Source: a bacterium
GTDB taxonomy: Bacteria; UBP7; UBA6624; JBBIMK01
Direction: 5' to 3'
Assembly: GCA_037444445.1 (NCBI GenBank)
Contig: JBBIMK010000003.1
Location: forward strand, 65,211 to 97,210
Length of the DNA stretch: 32,000 bases
Shown: piece by piece, positions 5,383 through 30,502 of the stretch
Layout of the letters: every line of letters starts with the position of its first letter
Numbering within the stretch: position 1 is the stretch's first letter
The notes under the pieces: model-generated
The model's database searches: none
What the model was told of the DNA's origin: nothing
What the model saw: the letters and a program-made list of their open reading frames with translations, nothing else
Position numbers and translations under genes: made by a program

Positions 5383-5394
5383 GAAATTCGGTTT

Positions 5395-5465
5395 TGGGGA
5401 GTCGTCTAACGGCAGGACAGTGGACTCTGGATCCATCAATGGAGGTTCGAGTCCTCCCTCCCCAG
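5395..5465 (+). tRNA. tRNA-Gln (anticodon CUG)
   Basis: Hand-folded cloverleaf. 7-bp acceptor stem TGGGGAG/CTCCCCA with the U1:A72 pair characteristic of bacterial tRNA-Gln, and U8. D-stem GTCT/GGAC with loop AACGGCA. Anticodon stem GTGGA/TCCAT with loop CT-CTG-GA. T-arm GGAGG-TTCGAGT-CCTCC. Discriminator G. CCA is not encoded. Confidence 0.9.
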
Positions 5466-5529
5466 TGGTGTTAGGTTTGCCCGGGCCGGGTCAGGAAAGG
5501 GAGAAAATGAATGAGGTGAGTCAAAGGGT

Positions 5530-7047
5530 GTGGAGAAGGAAGTTTTTTCTCAGATGAAAATTACTATCCCGAAGTCGCAAGCGAATTTTCTTCGTCACAA
5601 TTTTGCGAAAATTATTCGCCTTTCAGTTCCTTATGGCAAGGAACTCTATTCCGGCTCCGACTCCTCACGGATTGCCCAGGAGTTTTCTTCTCTTTTAATC
5701 CACCTGATTAAAAGTGTAGAAGAAGAGAATCCAGAATATTTTTTCTCGGCTCTTCACCGCGCCTTTATGGAATGGATTTCCAAGGGTGTGTATCTGGACC
5801 GAGTAGAGCAGATTTTCAGAAAAATCTTCCAGCGATTGGAGGAAGAGTTCAAGGAAGAACTCGCAGGGTTGTTAATGGCATTCCCCGAACGCCGCGAGAT
5901 TTTCTTTCAAATCGTGAGGGAATATACCAACGCTTTCCGAGAATTTTCAGAGCGTCAGTTGAAGGAACTGGAAATCTTAAACCTGTTGGGAGATTTTACG
6001 AAGGAGGACTTAAAGCGGTTATTCAGGAAGATTTTCCGTAAGACACTACGGGCGTTGAATGCTCAATACGGTGTTCTCTATTATCATGAAAATTCCCTGG
6101 AGATTCTTCAAAAGAAATTGGTGGAGGGAAGCGCTTTTCCCTTTAGCAAACTTGAACTGAGACGTTTTTTAAAGGATACCGCCTATGACCCTAAAGTTCT
6201 CCAGGCGTTTCACCGTATCCTTCAGAAAGGAGAAGTTCGCTCCTTGACCGGGAGCCTGGAGACGGATATAAGAAAGTTGCTTCACCAGGAATGCTCCGTG
6301 TGTTCTGGAGAGCCTGTGTTAGTTACGCGCTATACAGGTGTTTTTGAATGTCCGCTGATACAGACCTTGAAGGTGGGGTCTCTGATGTGTGTTCCCTTTT
6401 ATCGGAATGGAGAGAAACGAGGATTCTTCCTGCTCACTCGCCCGGGTGGTCTCGCCTTTAATCCATATGACCTGCAATTTCTGAAGGTTCTGGTGAACGA
6501 TGTGGCTCGGGGTATGGAGAATTACATCCTGTATTCGGAGCTTCGCCGCCTGGCTACTACGGATGCCCTGACAGGGATTTATAACCGCCGATACTTGATT
6601 GAAGCGATGCGTAGAGAGCACGAACGCTCTAAACGCTATCAAAAATCCTATGCCCTGGTGATGGCTGACCTGGACCATTTCAAGGAGGTCAATGACCAGT
6701 ATGGACATGCGGCCGGGGATGAAGCATTAAAGGTATTCGGTAGAATCCTTAAAAACTATTCTCGTATCACGGATGTGGTGGGACGCTACGGTGGAGAAGA
6801 ATTTCTGGTCATCATCCCGGAAGGAACGGTGACCAGCAGCGCCGCTTTTGCGGAACGCATCCGAAAAACCCTGGAGCAAACGGTGATTACTTCCCCGGTA
6901 GGTGTGCGCTTCCGAATTACTGCCAGTTTCGGTGTTTGTTCCTATCCCCATCACGGAAAAAATCCAGAGAAACTTTTGAAAAAAGTGGATGATTTCCTGT
7001 ATCAAGCGAAGAAACGAGGGCGTAACCGAGTAGAGGTGGCTTCGTGA
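5530..7047 (+). CDS. diguanylate cyclase (GAF-like sensor + GGDEF domain, with I-site)
   Basis: ATTDALTGIYNRRY, DLDHFKEVND and RYGGEEFLVIIP (GGEEF active site), with RITD (RxxD I-site) five residues upstream. GTG start at 5530 with GAGGTGA 9 nt upstream; the ATG at 5554 is the alternative. Confidence 0.85.
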   Translation: MEKEVFSQMKITIPKSQANFLRHNFAKIIRLSVPYGKELYSGSDSSRIAQEFSSLLIHLIKSVEEENPEYFFSALHRAFMEWISKGVYLDRVEQIFRKIFQRLEEEFKEELAGLLMAFPERREIFFQIVREYTNAFREFSERQLKELEILNLLGDFTKEDLKRLFRKIFRKTLRALNAQYGVLYYHENSLEILQKKLVEGSAFPFSKLELRRFLKDTAYDPKVLQAFHRILQKGEVRSLTGSLETDIRKLLHQECSVCSGEPVLVTRYTGVFECPLIQTLKVGSLMCVPFYRNGEKRGFFLLTRPGGLAFNPYDLQFLKVLVNDVARGMENYILYSELRRLATTDALTGIYNRRYLIEAMRREHERSKRYQKSYALVMADLDHFKEVNDQYGHAAGDEALKVFGRILKNYSRITDVVGRYGGEEFLVIIPEGTVTSSAAFAERIRKTLEQTVITSPVGVRFRITASFGVCSYPHHGKNPEKLLKKVDDFLYQAKKRGRNRVEVAS

Positions 7048-8246
7048 AACGCTCCCAAATCTTGAAAGAGTTCATCAGCGTTTCTTCTGCTCTTGCCTCC
7101 CTGGTGGAGCGTCGGTCCACTCAACACCCCTTTCATGTGGCATGGCTGTCGCGTCGGATGGGAGAATCCCTGAACCTCTCCAGGAAAAGTCTCAGAAACC
7201 TTCAATATGCTGCCCTTCTGCATGATATTGGTGAGATTGCTATCCCCGACCGAATCCTCGATAAGCCCGGACAACTCACTCTCGCGGAACGCCTGCAAAT
7301 GGAACGGCATGTTCTCATAGGCTACAATGTGGTTTTCAAAATTCCAACGCTGGAAGAGGCAGCCCTTTTCATTCGCTGGCACCACGAGAAAATAGACGGA
7401 ACCGGCTACCCCGATGGGTTAGAAAACGGTGCCATTCCGATAGAAGCATCGGTGCTGTCTCTGGCCGATGTGTTTGAAACACTGACGAGTGACCGCCCCT
7501 TCCGGAAAGCCTTGCCACAAGCAGTAGCCCTTGAAACCATCCAAAAAATGTCTGGCATTGCTTTTCCTCCCCGGGTCGTCTCTGCCTTTCTGAAGGTTTT
7601 CACCGAGCGAAAATCCCCCCCCACAGATGTTCTACTGAACTATGACCAGGAGAGCGAAGAGGATTTGAGTGAGGATGAATTGATTTTTCATGCCTTTGCC
7701 ATTTCCACTGTTCTATCAGAGTTGGTTTCGGAGAGGCATTCTCATCTGAAAAGCCATGCCGTTCGCACTTCTCTCCTGTGTAGCGCTCTGGGGAATGAAC
7801 TGGGTCTATCTCATAATGATTTGTTCACTCTGGAACTGGCCGCCCTCTTACATGAGGTAGGCATGGCGGCTATACCTTCAGAGATTCTGTTATCTCGCCG
7901 TAAGTTGACCCCTGATGAAAGAGAAATGATTCATCGTCATCCTATCTATTCAGAAGAAATTGCCTCACAGTTGTCTTCTTTTCCAGAGGTGGCCACTGTC
8001 ATTCGTAGTCATCATGAGCGCTATGATGGAAAAGGATATCCCGATGGTTTGAAGGGGGAAGAGATTCCCTACCTATCCCGAATTCTTGCCGTGTGCTCTT
8101 CTTTTGAGGCGATGCTTTCGCGTCGCCCTTATCGCCGAGCGATGAGCCCCTCAGCGGCTTTTGAAACGTTCTTATCCAGCCTGGGAAAGCAATTTGACCC
8201 GGGGCTACAGAAAGCCCTGGAAGCTCTCCTCGTTCATCGTGTATAG
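7044..8246 (+). CDS. tandem HD-GYP domain protein (putative c-di-GMP phosphodiesterase)
   Basis: Two modules: LLHDIGEIAIP...HHEKIDGTGYPDGL and LLHEVGMAAIP...HHERYDGKGYPDGL. The GTG start overlaps the cyclase stop as GTGA (7044-7047), with GAGGTGG 5 nt upstream. Confidence 0.85.
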   Translation: MKRSQILKEFISVSSALASLVERRSTQHPFHVAWLSRRMGESLNLSRKSLRNLQYAALLHDIGEIAIPDRILDKPGQLTLAERLQMERHVLIGYNVVFKIPTLEEAALFIRWHHEKIDGTGYPDGLENGAIPIEASVLSLADVFETLTSDRPFRKALPQAVALETIQKMSGIAFPPRVVSAFLKVFTERKSPPTDVLLNYDQESEEDLSEDELIFHAFAISTVLSELVSERHSHLKSHAVRTSLLCSALGNELGLSHNDLFTLELAALLHEVGMAAIPSEILLSRRKLTPDEREMIHRHPIYSEEIASQLSSFPEVATVIRSHHERYDGKGYPDGLKGEEIPYLSRILAVCSSFEAMLSRRPYRRAMSPSAAFETFLSSLGKQFDPGLQKALEALLVHRV

Positions 8247-21066: not shown

Positions 21067-23547
21067 TTAAAAGAGGCGCTGGGGGCGGATTTCTCTCGCT
21101 TTCTCCTCTTCTTTCATTTCTTCGGGTGCGGGTGGGGAAGGCTCCGGGATGGTTTGTTCCCGACTTTCCATCTGTGAAAGAATTTCACGGGCTCTGCGAA
21201 CGACCAGCGGGGGTAATCCTGCCAATCGTGCCACTTCAATTCCATAACTCCGAGTGGCTCGCCCGGGAACCACTTTATGTAATAGCACCACCTCACTGCC
21301 CCTTTCTTCCACTGCTACCTGAAGGTTGAAAGCCCCTTCTATATGATTATCCAGGGCCGTAAGTTCATGATAATGGGTGGCGAAGATGGTCCGACATTTT
21401 AAGTGAGAAGCCACATATTCACCCACCGCCCAGGCGATGGAGATGCCGTCGTAGGTGCTGGTTCCACGACCGATTTCATCCAGAACCACCAGGCTTCTCC
21501 GGGTAGCATTCCGGAGGATTTTTGCTGTTTCTGTCATTTCCATCATGAAAGTGGATTGCCCTCGGGCGATGTCATCAGAGGCGCCCACACGGGTGTAAAT
21601 CCCGTCCACCACACCGATTTCTGCTTTCTCTGCCGGCACGAAACTCCCCATTTGTGCCATGAGTGTGATGAGTGCAATCTGGCGAATGTAGGTGGATTTG
21701 CCGGACATATTAGGACCGGTGATGATGCCGAGGCGCTTGTTTGCTGTATCCAGATAGGCATCGTTGGGAACGAATTCGCCGGGCGGGAGCAGGGCTTCTA
21801 CCACCGGGTGACGCCCCCGATGAATGGAAATCCTCGCCTTCTCGTCTATCAAGGGCTTGCAGTAATCCCGTTCCTCTGCCACCTCGGCGAGGGAAAGGAG
21901 AAAATCCAGTAAGGCAAGCGCGGATGCCATTCTTACCAGGTTTCGGGCTGATTGCTGTGCCTGTTCGGATAAAATCTCTATGAGTTCCTCCTCTCTTGCC
22001 TGCAATTCTTCCTGTGCGGTCAGGACCTTTTCCTCCATTCGTTTTAACTCGGGCGTGGTGAAGCGCTCTGCGTTCACCATGGTTTGTTTACGCTCATACT
22101 CTGCTGGCACGAGGGATAGATTGGGCTTCGTCACCTCAATAAAATACCCGAATATTTTGTTATAGCGAACTTTCAAAGATTTGATGCCCGTTCTCTGGCG
22201 TTCCTTCTCCTCCAGTTGTTGAAACCACCTTTCCCCGTAGGTGGCCAGGGAGCGGAGTTCATCCAGACGATCATCAAAACTGTTGCGAAAGATTTTTTCC
22301 GGGGAATATTCTTCCTCTAAGGCTTGCTCTAAAAGCGATAACATTTGTTGGAATGAGGCGATTGCCGTTTGAATTTCCTTCAACAGAAGGCTCTGAGTGT
22401 CCTGGAGGAGGGGATGAATTAGAGCCACTTTGCGGAGAGAATTTCGGAGGCGGAACAGGTCGTAGGGGCGAATTTTTCGCGCCCCGCATTTCCCCGCCAG
22501 CCGTTCCAGGTCGCCCATCCCTTTGAAAGCCTCCGAAAGGTCATCCCGAAGATATCCGTTGTTGAGCAGTTCTTCTATCGCTGTCTGTCGCTGGAGAATC
22601 TCCGGGATTCGGCAAAGGGGTGCCAGGATTTCGCTCTTCAGAAATCGCTTGCCCATAGGAGTTTTCACCCTGTCCAGACACCACAGCAGACTCCCTTCTT
22701 CTCCCTTCCAGGTTTCCACTAATTCCAGATTCTTTGCGGTGCTGGAATCTAAAACAACCCTCTGCTCCGGATGGTAAAAGCGAATGGTGTGGAAATGGTG
22801 CAATTGAACCAGTTTGAGTGAGGATAGATAGGAGAGGGCGATGACAGAAGCACGAGTGGCAAGAGGATGAGCATCCAGGTCAAAAACTTTTAGAGAGTGG
22901 ACCCCGAAAAAGCGTTTGAGGGTTTCTTCATCGGATGAATACTGGGAATCATCTATGGGGTGAAGGTGAATTCCCGCGGATTGCAGGGTAGTCAGAGTTT
23001 CCTGCCTGCCGAGAAACAAGATTTCTTTCGGACCGCGAAGGAAAATTTCTTCCCGTAGGCGGTCTATCGTGCTACCGGTATGAATTTCTGTGGCGATGAA
23101 CTCGCCGATGGAAGTTTCTACAAAGGCTAAGCCGAATTTCCCGTTCTCTTCCACAATGACGCAGAGATAATTTTTCTTCCCTTCGTCCAGGAACTCTTCC
23201 CGGATAATGGCGCCCGGGGTGAGAACTTCCACCACTTCTCGTTTCACCAGCCCTTTGGCTTTTTTCGGATCTTCCACCTGCTCACAAATGGCTACTTTAC
23301 AGCCCGCTTTTAGCAGGCGCAGGATGTATCGTGAGGCCGAATGATACGGAACACCACACATGGGAACGGATTGGTCTTTTTTCACTCCTCTTCTTGTCAG
23401 AGTGATACCGAGAATTTCCGATGCTTTGCGAGCGTCCTCACCGAACATTTCATAAAAGTCCCCCAGGCGAAAAAGCAGAATAAAATCGGCATAGGTTCGC
23501 TTGAACCGCCGATACTGCATCATCATAGGTGTGAATTTCTCTTCCAC
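21067..23547 (-). CDS. mutS: DNA mismatch repair protein MutS
   Basis: 826 aa. N-terminal TPMMMQYRRFK...LFRLGDFYEMFGEDA (mismatch-binding Phe-x-Glu), Walker A GPNMSGKST and DEIGRGTSTYDG. Confidence 0.95.
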   Translation of the reverse strand: MEEKFTPMMMQYRRFKRTYADFILLFRLGDFYEMFGEDARKASEILGITLTRRGVKKDQSVPMCGVPYHSASRYILRLLKAGCKVAICEQVEDPKKAKGLVKREVVEVLTPGAIIREEFLDEGKKNYLCVIVEENGKFGLAFVETSIGEFIATEIHTGSTIDRLREEIFLRGPKEILFLGRQETLTTLQSAGIHLHPIDDSQYSSDEETLKRFFGVHSLKVFDLDAHPLATRASVIALSYLSSLKLVQLHHFHTIRFYHPEQRVVLDSSTAKNLELVETWKGEEGSLLWCLDRVKTPMGKRFLKSEILAPLCRIPEILQRQTAIEELLNNGYLRDDLSEAFKGMGDLERLAGKCGARKIRPYDLFRLRNSLRKVALIHPLLQDTQSLLLKEIQTAIASFQQMLSLLEQALEEEYSPEKIFRNSFDDRLDELRSLATYGERWFQQLEEKERQRTGIKSLKVRYNKIFGYFIEVTKPNLSLVPAEYERKQTMVNAERFTTPELKRMEEKVLTAQEELQAREEELIEILSEQAQQSARNLVRMASALALLDFLLSLAEVAEERDYCKPLIDEKARISIHRGRHPVVEALLPPGEFVPNDAYLDTANKRLGIITGPNMSGKSTYIRQIALITLMAQMGSFVPAEKAEIGVVDGIYTRVGASDDIARGQSTFMMEMTETAKILRNATRRSLVVLDEIGRGTSTYDGISIAWAVGEYVASHLKCRTIFATHYHELTALDNHIEGAFNLQVAVEERGSEVVLLHKVVPGRATRSYGIEVARLAGLPPLVVRRAREILSQMESREQTIPEPSPPAPEEMKEEEKAREIRPQRLF

Positions 23548-26776: not shown

Positions 26777-27754
26777 ATGAACCCAAAAACCTCCTTCGCG
26801 CCTGGTTTTTCACCGGTGGAGAGAGACTTGATTTCTCTCATCGGAAATACACCCCTTCTGCCCTTTCGGGATGAGGCGCTCTTGCACAACGGGGTGAGTT
26901 TCTATTTGAAGGCGGAGTGGTATAATCCCGGCGGAAGTGTAAAGGACCGCCCCGTTCTCTTCATCCTCAGGGAGGGAGAATCTGCCGGGGAACTCAGGAA
27001 GGGGAAAACAATACTGGATGCGACCTCGGGAAATGGGGGCATCTCTTATGCGTGGATGGGGGGTCGCATGGGGTATCCGGTGAAGTTGTGCATTCCTTCC
27101 AATGCCAGCACAGAACGGATAAAACTCCTTCAGATTCTGGGTGCAGAACTGGTATTCACAGACCCTCTGGAGGGAACGGATGGGGCGAGAAAAGTGGCGG
27201 AAAGCCTGCGTCATGAATCACCCGATGATTTCTTCTATCCCGACCAGTACGGAAATCCAGCCAATCCGCTTTCTCATTACACCACCACAGGCCCAGAAAT
27301 CTGGAATCAAACGGAGAAAAACATCACCCATTTCGTTTGTGGCCTGGGCACCACAGGCACTTTTATGGGGTGCGGGAGGTTTTTGAAACAGGTGAACCCT
27401 GAAATTCGCCTCCTCACTGTGGAGCCTGACACTCCATTTCATGGGCTGGAAGGATTAAAATATCAGGATGCCACCTCGCCCGCTGGATTTTATGACCCCC
27501 TGCTGGCGGATGAACACTGCTATATTCGGACGGAGGATGCTTACGACCTTCTGCGTTATCTCGCCCGCAAACACGGGCTTCTGGTGGGACCCTCCTCCGG
27601 CGCCGCTATCCTCGCCGGTATTCAAACCGCAAAGAAATTAAAAGAAGGAACCATCGTTGTGCTTTGCCCTGATTCCGCTTCCCGATACCTGTCGGAGCGT
27701 TTCTGGCAGGCGCATTTCACGGAAGTTCAACATGCGTTGGATTCCAGTAAATAA
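26777..27754 (+). CDS. cysM: PLP-dependent cysteine synthase, CysM-like (sulfur-carrier/O-phosphoserine type suggested by context)
   Basis: NPGGSVKDRP (PLP lysine), TSGNGGISYA, GLGTTGTFMG and GPSSGAA. Followed by JAMM, CysO-like and MoeZ-like genes, as in the mycobacterial mec-cysO-cysM system. Confidence 0.85.
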   Translation: MNPKTSFAPGFSPVERDLISLIGNTPLLPFRDEALLHNGVSFYLKAEWYNPGGSVKDRPVLFILREGESAGELRKGKTILDATSGNGGISYAWMGGRMGYPVKLCIPSNASTERIKLLQILGAELVFTDPLEGTDGARKVAESLRHESPDDFFYPDQYGNPANPLSHYTTTGPEIWNQTEKNITHFVCGLGTTGTFMGCGRFLKQVNPEIRLLTVEPDTPFHGLEGLKYQDATSPAGFYDPLLADEHCYIRTEDAYDLLRYLARKHGLLVGPSSGAAILAGIQTAKKLKEGTIVVLCPDSASRYLSERFWQAHFTEVQHALDSSK

Positions 27755-27820
27755 CCTGACATTCAAGACAGGTAAGGCTCCCCCCCGCCTTCTGGTAAAA
27801 AAGGACCCGGGTGAAAGGAG

Positions 27821-28270
27821 ATGCTTCGTCTTCCCGTTGAACTTTTAGAGGAAATCTACCGACATGTAGAAGTTACCTATCCGGAAGAAGGTTGTGGATT
27901 TCTGGTGGGGCAGTGGGAAGACGAAGAAGATGTAATGGTTCTTCAGGTTTTACCTGTTTCTAATACACGGGTGGATTCCCGCCATAACCGATATCTCATT
28001 TCTCCGGAGGTATTTTTACAGGTGAACCGGGAGGTGGAGAAACAGTCGCTGGAGATTGTGGGATTTTATCATTCCCACCCGGATGCACCCGCAAAGCCGT
28101 CCGATTTTGACCGAGATTACGCCTGGTTCGGCTATGTGTATATGATTGTGCCTGCCCACAGGGGTAAGAGCGGTATGCCTCAGGTGTGGAAATTAACCGA
28201 GGACCGTTCGTCTTTTTTGCCGGAAAGTCTGATACTATTGGAACGGAGGGATATGGTGTGGCAACGGTGA
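27821..28270 (+). CDS. mec: JAMM/MPN+ zinc metallohydrolase (Mec-like)
   Basis: EEGCGFLVG (catalytic Glu) and GFYHSHPDAPAKPSDFD (H-x-H-x7-S-x2-D JAMM motif). GAAAGGAG RBS. Confidence 0.85.
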   Translation: MLRLPVELLEEIYRHVEVTYPEEGCGFLVGQWEDEEDVMVLQVLPVSNTRVDSRHNRYLISPEVFLQVNREVEKQSLEIVGFYHSHPDAPAKPSDFDRDYAWFGYVYMIVPAHRGKSGMPQVWKLTEDRSSFLPESLILLERRDMVWQR

Positions 28271-29688
28271 AAATCCCTGCTCCTTTGCGCCGTTTCACTC
28301 ATCACCAGAACGACATCCCCATTGATGGAGTCAATGTAAGGGAGGTTCTGAAAAATTTGCGCCAGCAGTTTCCTGTGTTAGAAAAACACCTTTTTACCGA
28401 GGACCAACAACTGCGGAATTTTGTTACTCTATTCTTAAATAACGAGGATATTCGCTCGTTGCAGGGGCTGGACACTCCGGTTAAGGAAGGAGACGAAATT
28501 TCCATCGTTCCAGCGATAGCGGGGGGGATGAGAAAGAATGAAGTCATTCTCACTCCGGAAGAAATCCTGCGTTACTCCCGCCATCTCATTATGCCCGAGG
28601 TGGGAATGGAGGGGCAAAAGAAGTTGAAGTCTGCCCGCATCCTCATCGTAGGGATGGGAGGGCTCGGATGCCCCGTCTCTACCTACCTTACCATGGCAGG
28701 AGTGGGAACCCTCGGCATTCTGGACTTTGATAGGGTGGAACTTTCTAATCTTCAGCGCCAACCCCTATATGTGACTGATGATGTGGGCAAACTCAAGGTG
28801 GAAGTGGCGAAAAAAAGGCTGAATGCTATGAATCCTCATGTGCGTATTCAAGTGCATCCCGTGCAACTTACCTCAGAGAACGCTATGGAGATTTTGCAGG
28901 ATTATGACCTGGTTGTGGATGGAACAGACAATTTTCCCACCCGGTATTTAGTGAACGATGCCTGCGTGCTGTTGAAGAAGCCGTATGTCTATGGGAGCCT
29001 ATTCCGCTTTGAGGGGCAGGTGACCGTCTTCGGAGGGGAAGGAGGTCCCTGCTATCGGTGCTTATATCCGGAGCCGCCACCGCCTGACCTGGTTCCGTCG
29101 TGTGCAGAAGGAGGTGTTCTGGGCGTTCTCCCCGGCTTCGTCGGCGCCTGGCAAGCACTGGAAGCTATGAAACTCATCCTGAATGAAGGGGAAAGCCTCC
29201 GCGGCCGCTTTATCCTCATAGATGCCATTCAGGGGCGAGCTCGCGAATTCAAAATTCATCCCAATCCCCAGTGCCCCGCCTGTGGCAATCACCCCACTAT
29301 CCACCGGCTGATAGATTATGACGAGTTTTGCGGTGCACATCGGGCAGAGCAGGCCATACAACTGGATAAGGATTGGGAGATTACACCGAAGGAATTAAAA
29401 GCCCTTCTGGGCTCTAAAAAAGATGTGGTGATTCTGGATGTCCGGGAGCCAGTAGAATACCAAATCTGCCATCTACCCGGCTCTCGCCTCATTCCTCTGG
29501 GTGAACTTCCTTACCGGCTGGGAGAACTGGACACTTCCGAGCATATCGTGATTCACTGTCACACAGGCTCCAGAAGTGCTCGTGCTGTGCAGTTCCTTCG
29601 CCAGATGGGATTCACCCGGGTAAAAAATCTAAAAGGAGGGATTGATGCCTGGGCAGAGCAGGTGGCACCCTCTATGCCCAGATACTAA
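28258..29688 (+). CDS. CysO/MoaD-like sulfur-carrier (ends ...AIAGG) fused in frame to a MoeZ/MoeB-type E1-like adenylyltransferase with C-terminal rhodanese domain
   Basis: Residues from VKIPAPLRRF to FLNNEDIRSLQGLDTPVKEGDEISIVPAIAGG (nt 28258-28527) resemble M. tuberculosis CysO (VSIPTILR...YVNDEDVRF...GDSVTILPAVAGG). Next comes MRKNEV...LRYSRH...IVGMGGLGCP, CYRC and CPAC zinc motifs, PSCAEGGVLG, and a rhodanese domain with CHTGSRS. GTG 28258 has GGAGGG 7 nt upstream; GTG 28267 overlaps the mec stop as GTGA. The junction is a G7 run (28521-28527). Confidence 0.8.
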   Translation: MATVKIPAPLRRFTHHQNDIPIDGVNVREVLKNLRQQFPVLEKHLFTEDQQLRNFVTLFLNNEDIRSLQGLDTPVKEGDEISIVPAIAGGMRKNEVILTPEEILRYSRHLIMPEVGMEGQKKLKSARILIVGMGGLGCPVSTYLTMAGVGTLGILDFDRVELSNLQRQPLYVTDDVGKLKVEVAKKRLNAMNPHVRIQVHPVQLTSENAMEILQDYDLVVDGTDNFPTRYLVNDACVLLKKPYVYGSLFRFEGQVTVFGGEGGPCYRCLYPEPPPPDLVPSCAEGGVLGVLPGFVGAWQALEAMKLILNEGESLRGRFILIDAIQGRAREFKIHPNPQCPACGNHPTIHRLIDYDEFCGAHRAEQAIQLDKDWEITPKELKALLGSKKDVVILDVREPVEYQICHLPGSRLIPLGELPYRLGELDTSEHIVIHCHTGSRSARAVQFLRQMGFTRVKNLKGGIDAWAEQVAPSMPRY

Positions 29689-29689
29689 A

Positions 29690-30502
29690 ATGAGCATACC
29701 TTTTCCTCATATCAGTATAGAAGAAACCTTGACCCTTTATCCTCATGAGTATCCTGACTCACTGCGTGTGGAGCGGGTGATGCATTCCATCCAGCAAGAT
29801 GGGATATTACGGAATCCGGTCATTGTAACGCCCATCAAAAATGGCTTTGTCCTGCTGGATGGAACCAATCGCCTGGAGGCTTTCCGCCGTCTTTCCATCC
29901 CGTATATTCCAGTTCAAATCGTGTCTACCGCTTCTCCCGATGTTCAGTTGAAGTCGTGGGCACATCAGGTGAGTGATGCGGTGGAAATAGACGAGGAAGT
30001 TCAATCGCTGTTTCAGCAATTTCAGGCAGAGGTTCAGGTGGCAAAGGCCCTTTCATCCTTTACTCCGTGTGAGGAGAAAGATTATCTTTTATCCTACATC
30101 ACCCCCCGCACTTCTTTAACGGTATATCTCAAGGGGCGAGCAGTGAAAAAAGCCGCCCTCCTCAACCACTTTGTCAACTCCCTGCGGAAAGTAGATACCC
30201 TCTACCGATTTAATCCGGAAGATGAGGTAACTCTCCGAAACACCCATCAGTATGCCTATTACATGGTCTTTCGGAAGGACCAGATTGTGGAAATGGCGAA
30301 GAAGCGGGAAAAACTGCCCTGTGGAATTACACGCTTCCAGGTCGCCGGACGAGCCCTTGGCCTGGATGTCCCTCTTTCTGTTCTATCCAGACGGGAAACC
30401 CTGGAATCCAAAAAATCCTACCTGAAACGGTTGCTGGAAGAACGGAAAAAAGCCAGGAAAATCCGCCTCTACTCCGAGCCTGTCTACATCTTCAACGACT
30501 GA
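29690..30502 (+). CDS. ParB/sulfiredoxin-fold protein; candidate free serine kinase (SerK-like)
   Basis: N-terminal NPVIVTPIKNGFVLLDGTNRLEAFRRLSIPYIPVQIV carries the ParB/Srx DGxxR-type motif. The ATG is 1 nt after the moeZ stop. The function is inferred from context only. Confidence 0.6.
   Translation: MSIPFPHISIEETLTLYPHEYPDSLRVERVMHSIQQDGILRNPVIVTPIKNGFVLLDGTNRLEAFRRLSIPYIPVQIVSTASPDVQLKSWAHQVSDAVEIDEEVQSLFQQFQAEVQVAKALSSFTPCEEKDYLLSYITPRTSLTVYLKGRAVKKAALLNHFVNSLRKVDTLYRFNPEDEVTLRNTHQYAYYMVFRKDQIVEMAKKREKLPCGITRFQVAGRALGLDVPLSVLSRRETLESKKSYLKRLLEERKKARKIRLYSEPVYIFND

Follow-up and report, generated by a model that had tools for sequence, protein, structure and literature searches.

A CysO-type sulfur carrier fused in frame to its E1 within a candidate cysteine operon, a precursor probably matured by the adjacent JAB peptidase

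In Mycobacterium tuberculosis the sulfur carrier CysO ends at its Gly-Gly motif and moeZ is unlinked, while in the HcyS/HcyD system the carrier has a short C-terminal tail that is trimmed by a JAMM peptidase. Two further carriers, QbsE (GG-CF) and CxnE (GG-decapeptide), have also been described as JAMM-trimmed (PMC5925218). An operon comprising ThiS/MoaD, E1-rhodanese, JAB and cysteine synthase genes was listed by Iyer et al. (2006; PMC1779556), who also predicted JAB cleavage of fused ThiS/MoaD proteins and proposed that the Ub-like-ThiF fusions of thiamine operons serve a regulatory or docking role rather than that of a carrier. According to the account of Yang et al. (2018) cited in PMC8832034, the JAMM protein DR0402 cuts a linear MoaD-MoaE fusion and exposes a C-terminal Gly. 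The present analysis adds confirmation and scope and nothing conceptually new, since the literature already covers the operon type, fusions of a Ubl to an E1, and the cutting of linear carrier fusions by JAMM proteins. In our literature search the operon type and Ubl-E1 fusions were treated in general terms, and no paper explicitly named a CysO::MoeZ fusion.

The window, by which we mean the whole 32-kb stretch of bacterial DNA analyzed here, holds the same four activities as the M. tuberculosis CysM/CysO/Mec/MoeZ pathway (PMC3227635; 3DWG, 3DKI): a CysM-type PLP enzyme, a beta-grasp carrier ending in AGG, a JAMM peptidase, and an E1 with a rhodanese domain (Table 1). The adjacency of the JAB and carrier genes is also shared. 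Unlike in M. tuberculosis, the carrier of the window is fused to the E1, the E1 lies inside the operon, and a gene for an SbnI-like putative serine kinase is appended.

Table 1. Coordinates of the candidate cysteine operon and of the parts of the fusion gene in the window.
Feature	Position	Strand	Remarks
cysM-like gene (PLP-dependent cysteine synthase)	26777-27754	+	Pfam PALP 1.8e-62
JAB/JAMM (Mec-like) metallopeptidase gene	27821-28270	+	Pfam Prok-JAB 9.8e-22; candidate maturase cutting after Gly-Gly
Shine-Dalgarno-like GGAGGG	28245-28250	+	7 nt before GTG 28258
cysO::moeZ fusion gene	28258-29688	+	476 aa, ~53.3 kDa precursor; 1431-nt ORF; ThiS + ThiF + Rhodanese
Sulfur-carrier (CysO/ThiS/MoaD) domain	28258-28527	+	residues 1-90, end ...VPAIAGG
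G7 tract	28521-28527	+	last base of Ala codon GCG plus Gly codons GGG GGG
Linker MRKNEVI	28528-28548	+	putative scissile bond Gly90-Met91 (predicted)
ThiF/MoeB adenylation (E1) domain	28573-29280	+	Pfam ThiF PF00899 4.3e-85
Rhodanese domain	29383-29658	+	Pfam PF00581 4.2e-24; active-site loop CHTGSRS
SbnI/SerK-like (ParB-N fold) putative free-serine kinase gene	29690-30502	+	NCBIfam SbnI 1.3e-26, SerK 5.2e-9, both under cut-off

A first-pass annotation of this DNA had read the junction as GCG GGG GGG ATG AGA (A-G-G-M-R), with the carrier passing in frame into the E1. This reading is confirmed: positions 28519-28533 have this sequence, and a single ORF spans the junction and ends at the TAA at 29686-29688. 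The wider junction is CCA GCG ATA GCG GGG GGG ATG AGA AAG (P-A-I-A-G-G-M-R-K), in which the Gly-Gly codons occupy 28522-28527 and the ATG 28528-28530; the peptide across it is ...ISIVPAIAGGMR, with the carrier part ending ...AIAGG. The start codon is most likely GTG 28258, which is favored because of the Shine-Dalgarno-like motif ahead of it and because the related contig L001, introduced below, has an ATG at the homologous position. From this start the Gly-Gly pair would be residues 89-90, and the 3' end of the JAB gene overlaps the start of the fusion gene.

The carrier domain scores above the cut-off for Pfam ThiS (PF02597, 3.7e-14) and aligns end to end with PDB chains 3DWG_C of M. tuberculosis CysO (3.6e-10) and 4N6E_B (3.8e-12), both of which stop at the GG that aligns with the GG of the carrier domain. 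As encoded, a further 386 residues follow this GG in frame, and there is no free C-terminal carboxylate without proteolysis. The E1 domain has the GMGGLG nucleotide loop and the CYRC and CPAC zinc motifs, all invariant in the family alignment, as is the rhodanese active-site cysteine (C431); it superimposes on MoeB (1JW9) with a TM-score of 0.96 and an rmsd of 1.5. The scores of 464 bits for NCBIfam MoeZ (NF005902; cut-off 647) and 486 bits for NCBIfam MoeB (NF005646; cut-off 633) both miss the equivalog level, and the E1 is a family-level member rather than a MoeZ or MoeB equivalog. In an AlphaFold (AF2) model of the fusion (pLDDT 86; 81-94 in the carrier domain), low confidence extends over a long stretch at the junction only, with a pLDDT below 50 for residues 83-91 (numbered from 28267); the linker is thus predicted to be flexible.

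The neighboring genes are consistent with cysteine synthesis. The cysM-like gene matches NCBIfam cysM (TIGR01138) at 2.3e-88, under the equivalog cut-off, and its product matches the CysM structures of E. coli and Salmonella at ~5e-60 to ~6e-60 and that of M. tuberculosis (3DKI/3DWG) at ~4e-47; of the two, the M. tuberculosis enzyme, which is specific for O-phosphoserine, is thus the more distant match. A cysM-like gene lies upstream of the JAB gene in nearly all related loci. The JAB protein matches NCBIfam desampylase (3.9e-23, under cut-off) and, among PDB entries, 2KCQ (1.8e-24) and PfJAMM1 (5LDA, 1.2e-6), and its JAMM metal-binding motif, E-x(n)-H-S/T-H-x7-S-x2-D, is intact (EEGCG...HSHPDAPAKPSDFD). 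The SbnI/SerK-like product aligns over its full length with SbnI (5UJD/6NR6, ~5e-15); as a putative free-serine kinase it would be a likely source of O-phosphoserine for CysM. A gene of this kind occupies this position only in the lineage of the window, where L001, L162 and L163 also have it. None of the matches to MoeZ, CysM, desampylase and SbnI reaches the NCBIfam equivalog level, so the products may differ in exact function from the characterized enzymes. The best reading of the gene order is a CysM-JAB-CysO::MoeZ-SbnI-like cysteine operon. We found no second carrier gene in the window, nor in most related loci. In a few Heliomicrobium loci a further CysO-like gene lies ~4 kb away.

The G7 tract is what had drawn attention to the junction. 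Removal of one G does give GCG GGG GGA TGA, as had been claimed, and 4-nt overlaps of the ATGA type do occur elsewhere in the window (for example, at 7044/7047 and 19914/19917). A homopolymer assembly or sequencing error would accordingly convert a true G6, encoding a carrier that ends AGG-stop and an E1 gene overlapping it neatly as ATGA, into an apparent fusion. No other G run in the window is as long, a Met directly follows the GG, and the E1 part resembles a complete standalone N-terminus, all of which would fit such an error. The tract is statistically unremarkable: it is one of eight G-runs of at least six in the window, GGG accounts for 28% of the Gly codons in local genes, and GGG-GGG occurs once among 17 Gly-Gly pairs, where ~1.4 would be expected.

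Three contigs of this lineage, obtained independently from other samples with other assemblers, bear directly on this question: L162 (Logan SRR11582170), L001 (JGI 3300003892) and L163 (JGI 3300010938), of which the latter two are identical in sequence. Each has an ORF of 1431 nt in the frame of the window and aligns to it without gaps, and their junctions differ from that of the window by substitutions only. L162, the closest relative at no less than 90% protein identity, reads GCG GGG GGA ATG GGT, which has neither G7 nor ATGA; L001 and L163 read GCA GGG GGG ATG AGG. The G-run is reduced to six in all three by synonymous changes. The first-pass annotation had proposed that relatives with G6 would have separate genes. 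The G6 was found and the separate genes were not, because the missing G is a synonymous third-position change that leaves the three relatives fused. With the frame and length kept and other nucleotides at the junction, the claimed assembly error is effectively refuted, and we give it almost no credence; the fused architecture is also the rule among the closest homologues, and a carrier that ends GG-stop, as G6 would create, is absent from the split relatives described below.

The same comparison indicates that the fusion is maintained. The dN/dS of the fusion gene is 0.15-0.17 (window versus L162 and L001), with values of ~0.22 for the carrier part and ~0.14 for the E1 part, and both parts are under purifying selection. 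It is in the linker that the window, L162 and L001 diverge most. In L001 and L163 a 1170-bp deletion has removed most of cysM and the JAB gene and left the fusion ORF intact. Since the JAB gene is lost, cleavage by an adjacent JAB is not essential in these two contigs, unless a second JAB is encoded elsewhere or the gene is heading to decay.

Beyond this lineage the fusion is real, conserved and widespread. All 120 of the best database matches have the ThiS, ThiF and rhodanese domains at 100% coverage and come from many phyla, and the junction is spanned in ~120 of the best 150 representatives of 50%-identity clusters; 50 of 80 genome loci are fused. The best 120 homologues share the pattern ...P(S/A)(I/V)AGG, followed by a linker of variable length and sequence and then LSxEEIxRYSRHL; in the window the stretch of E1 between the Met and the RYSRH motif counts 14 residues, which is near the lower limit for the family. 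In an alignment of 58 fusions A85-G86-G87 is invariant, and the Gly-Gly pair is kept in every one of 147 classified loci. On the E1 tree the fused state is clade-structured, requiring 7 changes as against ~46 with shuffled states. In the split relatives the same carrier domain is a separate protein at the same operon position. Not one of 88 such carriers ends GG-stop; every one has a tail of 1-28 residues after the GG, often rich in cysteine (for example, CCC or ACACCCPCRMLA), so trimming after the GG appears to be needed family-wide. In 113 of 119 assessable loci (50/52 fused and 63/67 split; ~95%) the gene immediately upstream encodes a JAB peptidase. In 12 metagenome loci no carrier motif was present within 600 nt upstream of the E1.

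Stop readthrough or a very recent fission by point mutation was suggested by a first genome scan with the full-length query, in which 31 of 31 split loci had the carrier in the same frame as the E1. With an E1-only query, 25 loci fell in frame 0, 13 in frame 1 and 17 in frame 2, and the suggestion was dropped; the first result was mostly a ranking bias, as tblastn extends through in-frame stops.

The +1 reading after the second GGG meets TGA directly in the window, and the same shift after GGG GGG does so in L001 and L163. Programmed recoding, in which +1 frameshifting or transcriptional slippage sets the carrier-to-E1 ratio, or a phase-variable switch of architecture, might be imagined on this basis, all the more so as tracts of six, seven and eight would each give a plausible product: GG-stop with ATGA, the fusion, and GG-DEKE-stop with the E1 ATG intact. 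The wider family argues against it. The tract is not conserved, with a G-run of only 2-3 in 43 of 51 fused junctions and mixed GGN GGN codons. Off-frame stops after the GG are at chance: a +1-frame stop directly follows it in 3 of 51 fused junctions, near the chance rate of 3/64, and a -1-frame stop in none of the 51. A +1 shift in L162, the closest relative, would meet TGG and no stop. An Rfam scan of the whole window detected a tRNA-Gln only; neither a riboswitch nor a recoding element was seen around the operon. The conserved adjacent JAB would already offer a route to free carrier. Efficient slippage is usually linked to tracts longer than G7. The slippage-controlled ratio put forward in the first-pass annotation is thus unsupported, as neither the G-run nor the ATGA persists even at 90% or greater protein identity, and we consider recoding in either form very improbable. 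Internal initiation at Met91 with the G-run as Shine-Dalgarno sequence is unsupported as well: the spacing to the ATG would be 0-2 nt, and Met directly after the GG is found in 2 of 59 fused linkers, in this lineage only. The locus had further been described as lying exactly on the boundary between two architectures. This holds for the DNA itself, but only as an accident of the codons used: fused and split forms of close relatives differ by spacers of 60-140 nt and not by homopolymer indels. The fusion is an ordinary representative of a type already known.

The reading that we consider likely is that the gene encodes a carrier-E1 precursor, which is matured by the JAB after Gly-Gly and works within the CysM-JAB-CysO::MoeZ-SbnI-like operon. 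The G7 tract is ordinary coding DNA for the Ala-Gly-Gly C-terminus of the carrier, and the 476-residue product would be a precursor whose Gly-Gly carboxylate must be freed before adenylation and thiocarboxylation. We propose that the JAB/JAMM peptidase encoded upstream cuts between Gly90 and Met91, which would yield a ~10.2-kDa carrier with GG at its end and a ~43.1-kDa E1. The two freed proteins would then act as their counterparts do in the M. tuberculosis pathway: the E1 would adenylate the carrier, and the rhodanese persulfide would convert it to the thiocarboxylate. CysM would condense the thiocarboxylated carrier with an activated serine, probably O-phosphoserine from the adjacent SbnI-like kinase, and the same JAB would hydrolyze carrier-GG-Cys to release free cysteine. 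As the peptidase would already cut after the GG in every catalytic cycle, an encoded extension at this point may cost nothing, and this would account for the short tail or whole E1 present there in relatives. Of the options raised in the first-pass annotation, the evidence favors a genuine fusion that is processed by the JAMM enzyme: the fusion is widespread, its GG is invariant, its linker varies and is predicted to be flexible, and a JAB gene is almost always adjacent. Cleavage after Gly-Gly, the peptidase responsible for it and the substrate of CysM are those that we infer to be most likely.

The fusion may instead be real and uncleaved, with the N-terminal beta-grasp domain permanently attached to the E1 for regulation or docking and the true carrier encoded elsewhere. 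Ub-like-ThiF fusions that co-occur with a solo ThiS do point to such another role (Iyer et al., 2006; PMC1779556). The retention of the fusion in L001 and L163 after loss of JAB and cysM, and the additional CysO-like gene of the few Heliomicrobium loci, are consistent with it. We nevertheless regard this as unlikely, given that an invariant Gly-Gly followed by a freely varying linker fits a cleavage or activation site better than a structural joint. In addition, the domain matches the bona fide carrier CysO along its entire length and is made as a separate protein in the split relatives, the window and most loci offer no other carrier, and the JAB gene is an almost constant neighbor.

A more elaborate version of the maturation model would make carrier activation gated by the JAB, with the cap, whether an E1 or an often Cys-rich tail, as a regulatory device. 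The Cys-rich tails might then sense redox state or metals, or serve as sulfur-relay arms, and in the lineage of the window single-base indels in the G tract would switch the type of cap (G6, no cap with the ATGA overlap; G7, an E1 cap; G8, a DEKE tail). We think it quite unlikely that the system works in this way.

Taken together, these data describe an operon family in which the Gly-Gly end of the encoded carrier is always capped, by either an E1 or a short tail. The fusion is a clear and abundant case in which a bacterial ubiquitin-like carrier is joined to the E1 of its own pathway, with more than 100 diverse sequence clusters in several phyla. The abundance of carrier-E1 fusions and the constant presence of tails after the GG in the split relatives suggest that JAB-dependent maturation is obligatory in the CysM-linked pathway. 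For annotation, the single fusion ORF should be kept and not 'corrected' into two genes, and its product is better named a carrier-E1 precursor than plain 'MoeB'.

Among described precursors, the layout of the window fusion fits that of the MoaD-MoaE type, with an N-terminal Ubl, a GG at the junction, a non-conserved flexible linker and a JAMM gene in the operon. In the cited account of Deinococcus radiodurans MoaD-MoaE (DR2607), the carrier is likewise N-terminal to a pathway partner and is freed by the JAMM/MPN+ protein DR0402; as given there, the partner is the sulfur-accepting synthase subunit MoaE, whereas that of the window is the activating E1, and cleavage has been demonstrated for DR2607 and is predicted here. 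The MoaX proteins of mycobacteria can be grouped with the MoaD-MoaE linear fusion in their likeness to the window fusion. QbsE/QbsD and CxnE (GG plus 10 residues)/CxnF combine residues after the GG with a clustered JAMM gene (PMC5925218), a form shared by the 88 split relatives; unlike these short tails, the 'tail' in the window is an enzyme of 386 residues.

Beta-grasp domains N-terminal to an E1-like enzyme are also found in the 'Ubl-E1-TBP in Thaumarchaeota' fusions, which are shared with bacteria (PMC2948915), and in the Ub-like-ThiF proteins of Campylobacter-type thiamine operons (PMC1779556). In the latter a solo ThiS co-occurs, whereas the fused domain of the window is the only carrier of its operon and keeps its GG; unlike in the Ubl-E1 fusions noted previously, the C-terminal domain here is a rhodanese. 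The best structural matches to the window E1 are Uba4-Urm1 (6YUB/6YUC) and E. coli MoeB-MoaD (1JW9). Uba4 shares both the E1-plus-rhodanese architecture and the thiocarboxylation chemistry expected here, but in both complexes the carrier is a separate polypeptide. Ubiquitin precursors, namely polyubiquitin and the fusions of ubiquitin to ribosomal proteins, likewise have a C-terminal extension that is removed after the GG by a dedicated peptidase, and the Caldiarchaeum ubiquitin precursor processed by Rpn11 (PMC6043591) provides a further parallel. Ubiquitin serves protein conjugation and the system in the window would serve sulfur transfer, without E2 or E3; an obligatory maturation of the carrier would nonetheless mirror the way in which eukaryotic ubiquitin is made.

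The junction in the window reads as the first-pass annotation had it, and a single ORF that begins before it runs through to a TAA stop at 29686-29688, with ThiS (3.7e-14), ThiF (4.3e-85) and Rhodanese (4.2e-24) domains. Translation most likely begins at GTG 28258, which lies 7 nt after GGAGGG (28245-28250) and corresponds to an ATG at the homologous position in L001, a contig of the same lineage. The resulting cysO::moeZ fusion protein has 476 aa, with Gly-Gly at residues 89-90. The annotation was also right that removing one G gives GCG GGG GGA TGA, and it proposed a JAMM-processed fusion, a slippage-controlled ratio or an assembly error.

We compared four same-lineage contigs from different samples: the window, L162 (Logan SRR11582170; at least 90% protein identity), L001 (JGI 3300003892) and L163 (JGI 3300010938; both 86% identity). 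All four carry a 1431-nt ORF in the identical frame, encoded by three nucleotide versions of the junction. The window and L001 align without gaps here, and the sole change within the tract is a synonymous GCG/GCA. An assembly indel does not explain a gapless junction, equal ORF lengths and differences confined to substitutions, and we regard a homopolymer error at the G tract as extremely unlikely. Both parts of the gene evolve under purifying selection, with dN/dS near 0.22 in the carrier and near 0.14 in the E1. The fusion in the window is real, as these contigs and the wider family confirm.

Positions of features in the window and in related loci
Feature	Sequence	Position	Strand	Remark
Junction	window	28519-28533	+	GCG GGG GGG ATG AGA
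Junction	L162			GCG GGG GGA ATG GGT
Junction	L001, L163			GCA GGG GGG ATG AGG
G run	window	28521-28527	+	7 G
SbnI/SerK-like gene (ParB-N fold)	window	29690-30502	+	NCBIfam SbnI 1.3e-26; PDB SbnI 5UJD/6NR6 ~5e-15, full length
1170-bp deletion	window	26993-28161		interval absent from L001 and L163
1170-bp deletion	L001	1808-2189
1170-bp deletion	L163	3824-4057
BshC-like gene and GT4 glycosyltransferase	L163	7380-10165		Pfam Rossmann-like_BshC
ORF beyond the operon	L001	5378-7012		544 aa
Second CysO-like gene	L065	343-597	-
Second CysO-like gene	L073	402-656	-
Second CysO-like gene	L080	628-882	-
tRNA-Gln(CTG)	window	5394-5466	+
GAF-GGDEF diguanylate cyclase and tandem HD-GYP-type protein	window	5530-8246	+	overlap GTGA
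MutS	window	21067-23547	-

The best 120 database matches all share the three-domain architecture of the window protein, at 100% coverage and 55-61% identity; they are spread over Acidobacteriota, Omnitrophota, Elusimicrobia, Firmicutes and Ignavibacteria, with some archaeal MAGs among them. Fused genes were found at 50 of 80 species-representative genome loci. A query of 160 residues covering the junction alone was searched exhaustively, and of the 150 best representatives at 50% identity about 120 align unbroken from carrier into E1. The fused proteins all carry ...(V/I)P(S/A)(I/V)AGG, in which A, G and G are invariant across 58 aligned sequences, followed by a linker that varies in both length and sequence and usually begins with S, A or V, and then the conserved E1 N-terminus LSxEEIxRYSRHL.

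These junctions bear directly on whether the G tract serves programmed slippage or phase variation, which we consider very unlikely because neither the tract nor an off-frame stop is conserved. The Gly-Gly codons are mixed GGN GGN, and in 43 of 51 fused junctions the G-run at this point is only 2-3 long. A stop directly after GG occurs in the +1 frame in 3/51, roughly as often as expected by chance; the -1 frame has one in 0/51. The closest relative, L162, lacks both G7 and ATGA yet is fused. The G7 tract is itself not unusual statistically: GGG makes up 28% of Gly codons in local genes, one GGG-GGG was observed among 17 Gly-Gly pairs against about 1.4 expected, and the window holds eight G-runs of at least six.

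Examined by hand, the stretch 28519-28545 tolerates single-base indels, with G6 giving AGG-stop and an ATGA overlap, G7 the fusion, and G8 AGG-DEKE-stop with the E1 ATG still usable. If the JAB peptidase trims tails, all three forms would be plausible as functioning arrangements.

We classified 147 loci from a genome scan (L003-L081) and a metagenome scan (L082-L161) as 59 fused and 88 split. Among the split carriers, not one ends in GG-stop; every one has a tail of 1-28 residues (median 6) after GG. In this family the carrier is thus always made with residues past GG, and a peptidase cutting after GG is needed in either architecture. Where upstream sequence suffices, JAB is the gene immediately upstream of the carrier in 50/52 fused and 63/67 split loci, almost always preceded by a CysM-like gene. 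On the E1-domain tree the two states are strongly clade-structured (at least 7 changes versus about 46 with shuffled states), so the fusion is stably inherited and has been gained or lost several times; the window belongs to a separate fused lineage whose closest E1 relatives (64-66% identity) are split. The annotation had placed the locus on the boundary between two architectures. One G fewer would indeed split the genes, but only by coincidence, through the codons that this strain happens to use. What separates the fused from the split member in close pairs (92% E1 identity) is a 60-140-nt spacer holding tail, stop and start rather than an indel in a homopolymer.

Cys accounts for 12.1% of residues in split tails versus 0.1% in fused linkers. 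At least two Cys occur in 19 of 77 unique split tails, and 12 start with Cys, which directly after GG mimics the carrier-GG-Cys pathway intermediate. Motifs such as CCC, CCPCGCCCCPR and xCACCCPCRMxA recur in separate loci (Cys-rich examples: L051, L059, L071, L102, L105, L115, L119, L127, L154). An apparent same-frame relation of E1 to carrier, seen in 31/31 split loci of the genome scan with a full-length fused query, was for the most part an effect of ranking, since tblastn alignments run on past in-frame stops; in the metagenome scan, an E1-only query placed the E1 in frames 0/1/2 in 25/13/17 split loci, a slight frame 0 excess (25/55) persisting.

Over its full length the window carrier can be aligned with M. 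tuberculosis CysO (3DWG_C) and 4N6E_B, and its GG coincides exactly with the chain ends of these free carriers. In the AlphaFold model (mean pLDDT 86.3) the sole long low-confidence stretch is residues 83-91 (AIAGG/MRK), consistent with an exposed, flexible junction. The E1 superposes on MoeB (TM 0.96) and on Uba4, and the nucleotide loop GMGGLG, two CxxC motifs, the rhodanese loop CHTGSRS and the JAMM motif of JAB are intact. A further solved carrier domain extended C-terminally past GG is 1V8C, a 168-aa Thermus thermophilus 'MoaD related protein' whose GG aligns at residues 86-87, inside the chain.

What E1 enzymes adenylate is the carrier's free C-terminal carboxylate; hence a carrier with a peptide bond after GG cannot be activated. 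We propose that JAB would cut between Gly90 and Met91 and so release a carrier of 10.2 kDa from an E1 of 43.1 kDa. The freed E1 would adenylate the carrier, as in M. tuberculosis, the rhodanese persulfide would convert it to the thiocarboxylate, CysM would condense this with activated serine, and JAB would hydrolyse carrier-GG-Cys to free cysteine. This hydrolysis is the same chemistry as cutting an encoded extension, which would explain simply how tails and whole-enzyme fusions come to be tolerated and to interconvert. Of the three original readings, a real fusion processed by JAB is the supported one: the fusion and the adjacent, motif-intact JAB are there, and the cleavage is predicted.

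Alternatively, the fusion may stay uncleaved, with the carrier as a permanent N-terminal domain. The main support comes from L001 and L163, where a clean deletion truncates cysM at about residue 73, so that a 71-aa PALP stub is left, and removes JAB as far as about residue 114. The fusion ORF and the SbnI-like gene are intact there; since two different JGI samples share the deletion, it is genuine rather than a misassembly. Against this, GG is invariant, split relatives exist and the window operon has no second carrier gene, and we consider a permanent domain unlikely. The deletion lineage is a natural test of the need for an adjacent JAB; its retention of the fusion, the lack of free-GG carriers and the Cys-rich tails are family-level by-products of more interest. 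At Heliomicrobium-type loci, a further CysO-like gene sits about 4.4 kb upstream of the fused one and is encoded on the other strand; within 5 kb, no other loci have one.

The SbnI/SerK-like gene immediately after the fusion gene likely encodes a free-serine kinase that would supply O-phosphoserine to CysM, judging by its homology. It occupies this position solely in the window's lineage (L001, L162, L163) and in 0/80 genome loci. Past the hydrolase gene trailing the operon, in a region outside the window, L163 has a BshC-like gene and one for a GT4 glycosyltransferase, and L001 has a 544-aa ORF. BshC is the cysteine-adding enzyme of bacillithiol, which hints at a link between the cysteine operon and low-molecular-weight thiol synthesis in the 86% lineage. 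The window is ordinary chromosome, and close to the operon it showed no signs of mobile elements or phage.

An operon of ThiS/MoaD, E1-rhodanese, JAB and cysteine synthase has been listed, Acidobacteria included, with the prediction that JAB frees the fused ThiS/MoaD (Iyer et al., 2006, PMC1779556), and Ubl-E1 fusions are common to Thaumarchaeota and bacteria (Makarova and Koonin, 2010, PMC2948915). JAMM removal of QbsE and CxnE tails has been described (PMC5925218), and the JAMM protein DR0402 cuts a linear MoaD-MoaE fusion, exposing the C-terminal Gly (PMC8832034).
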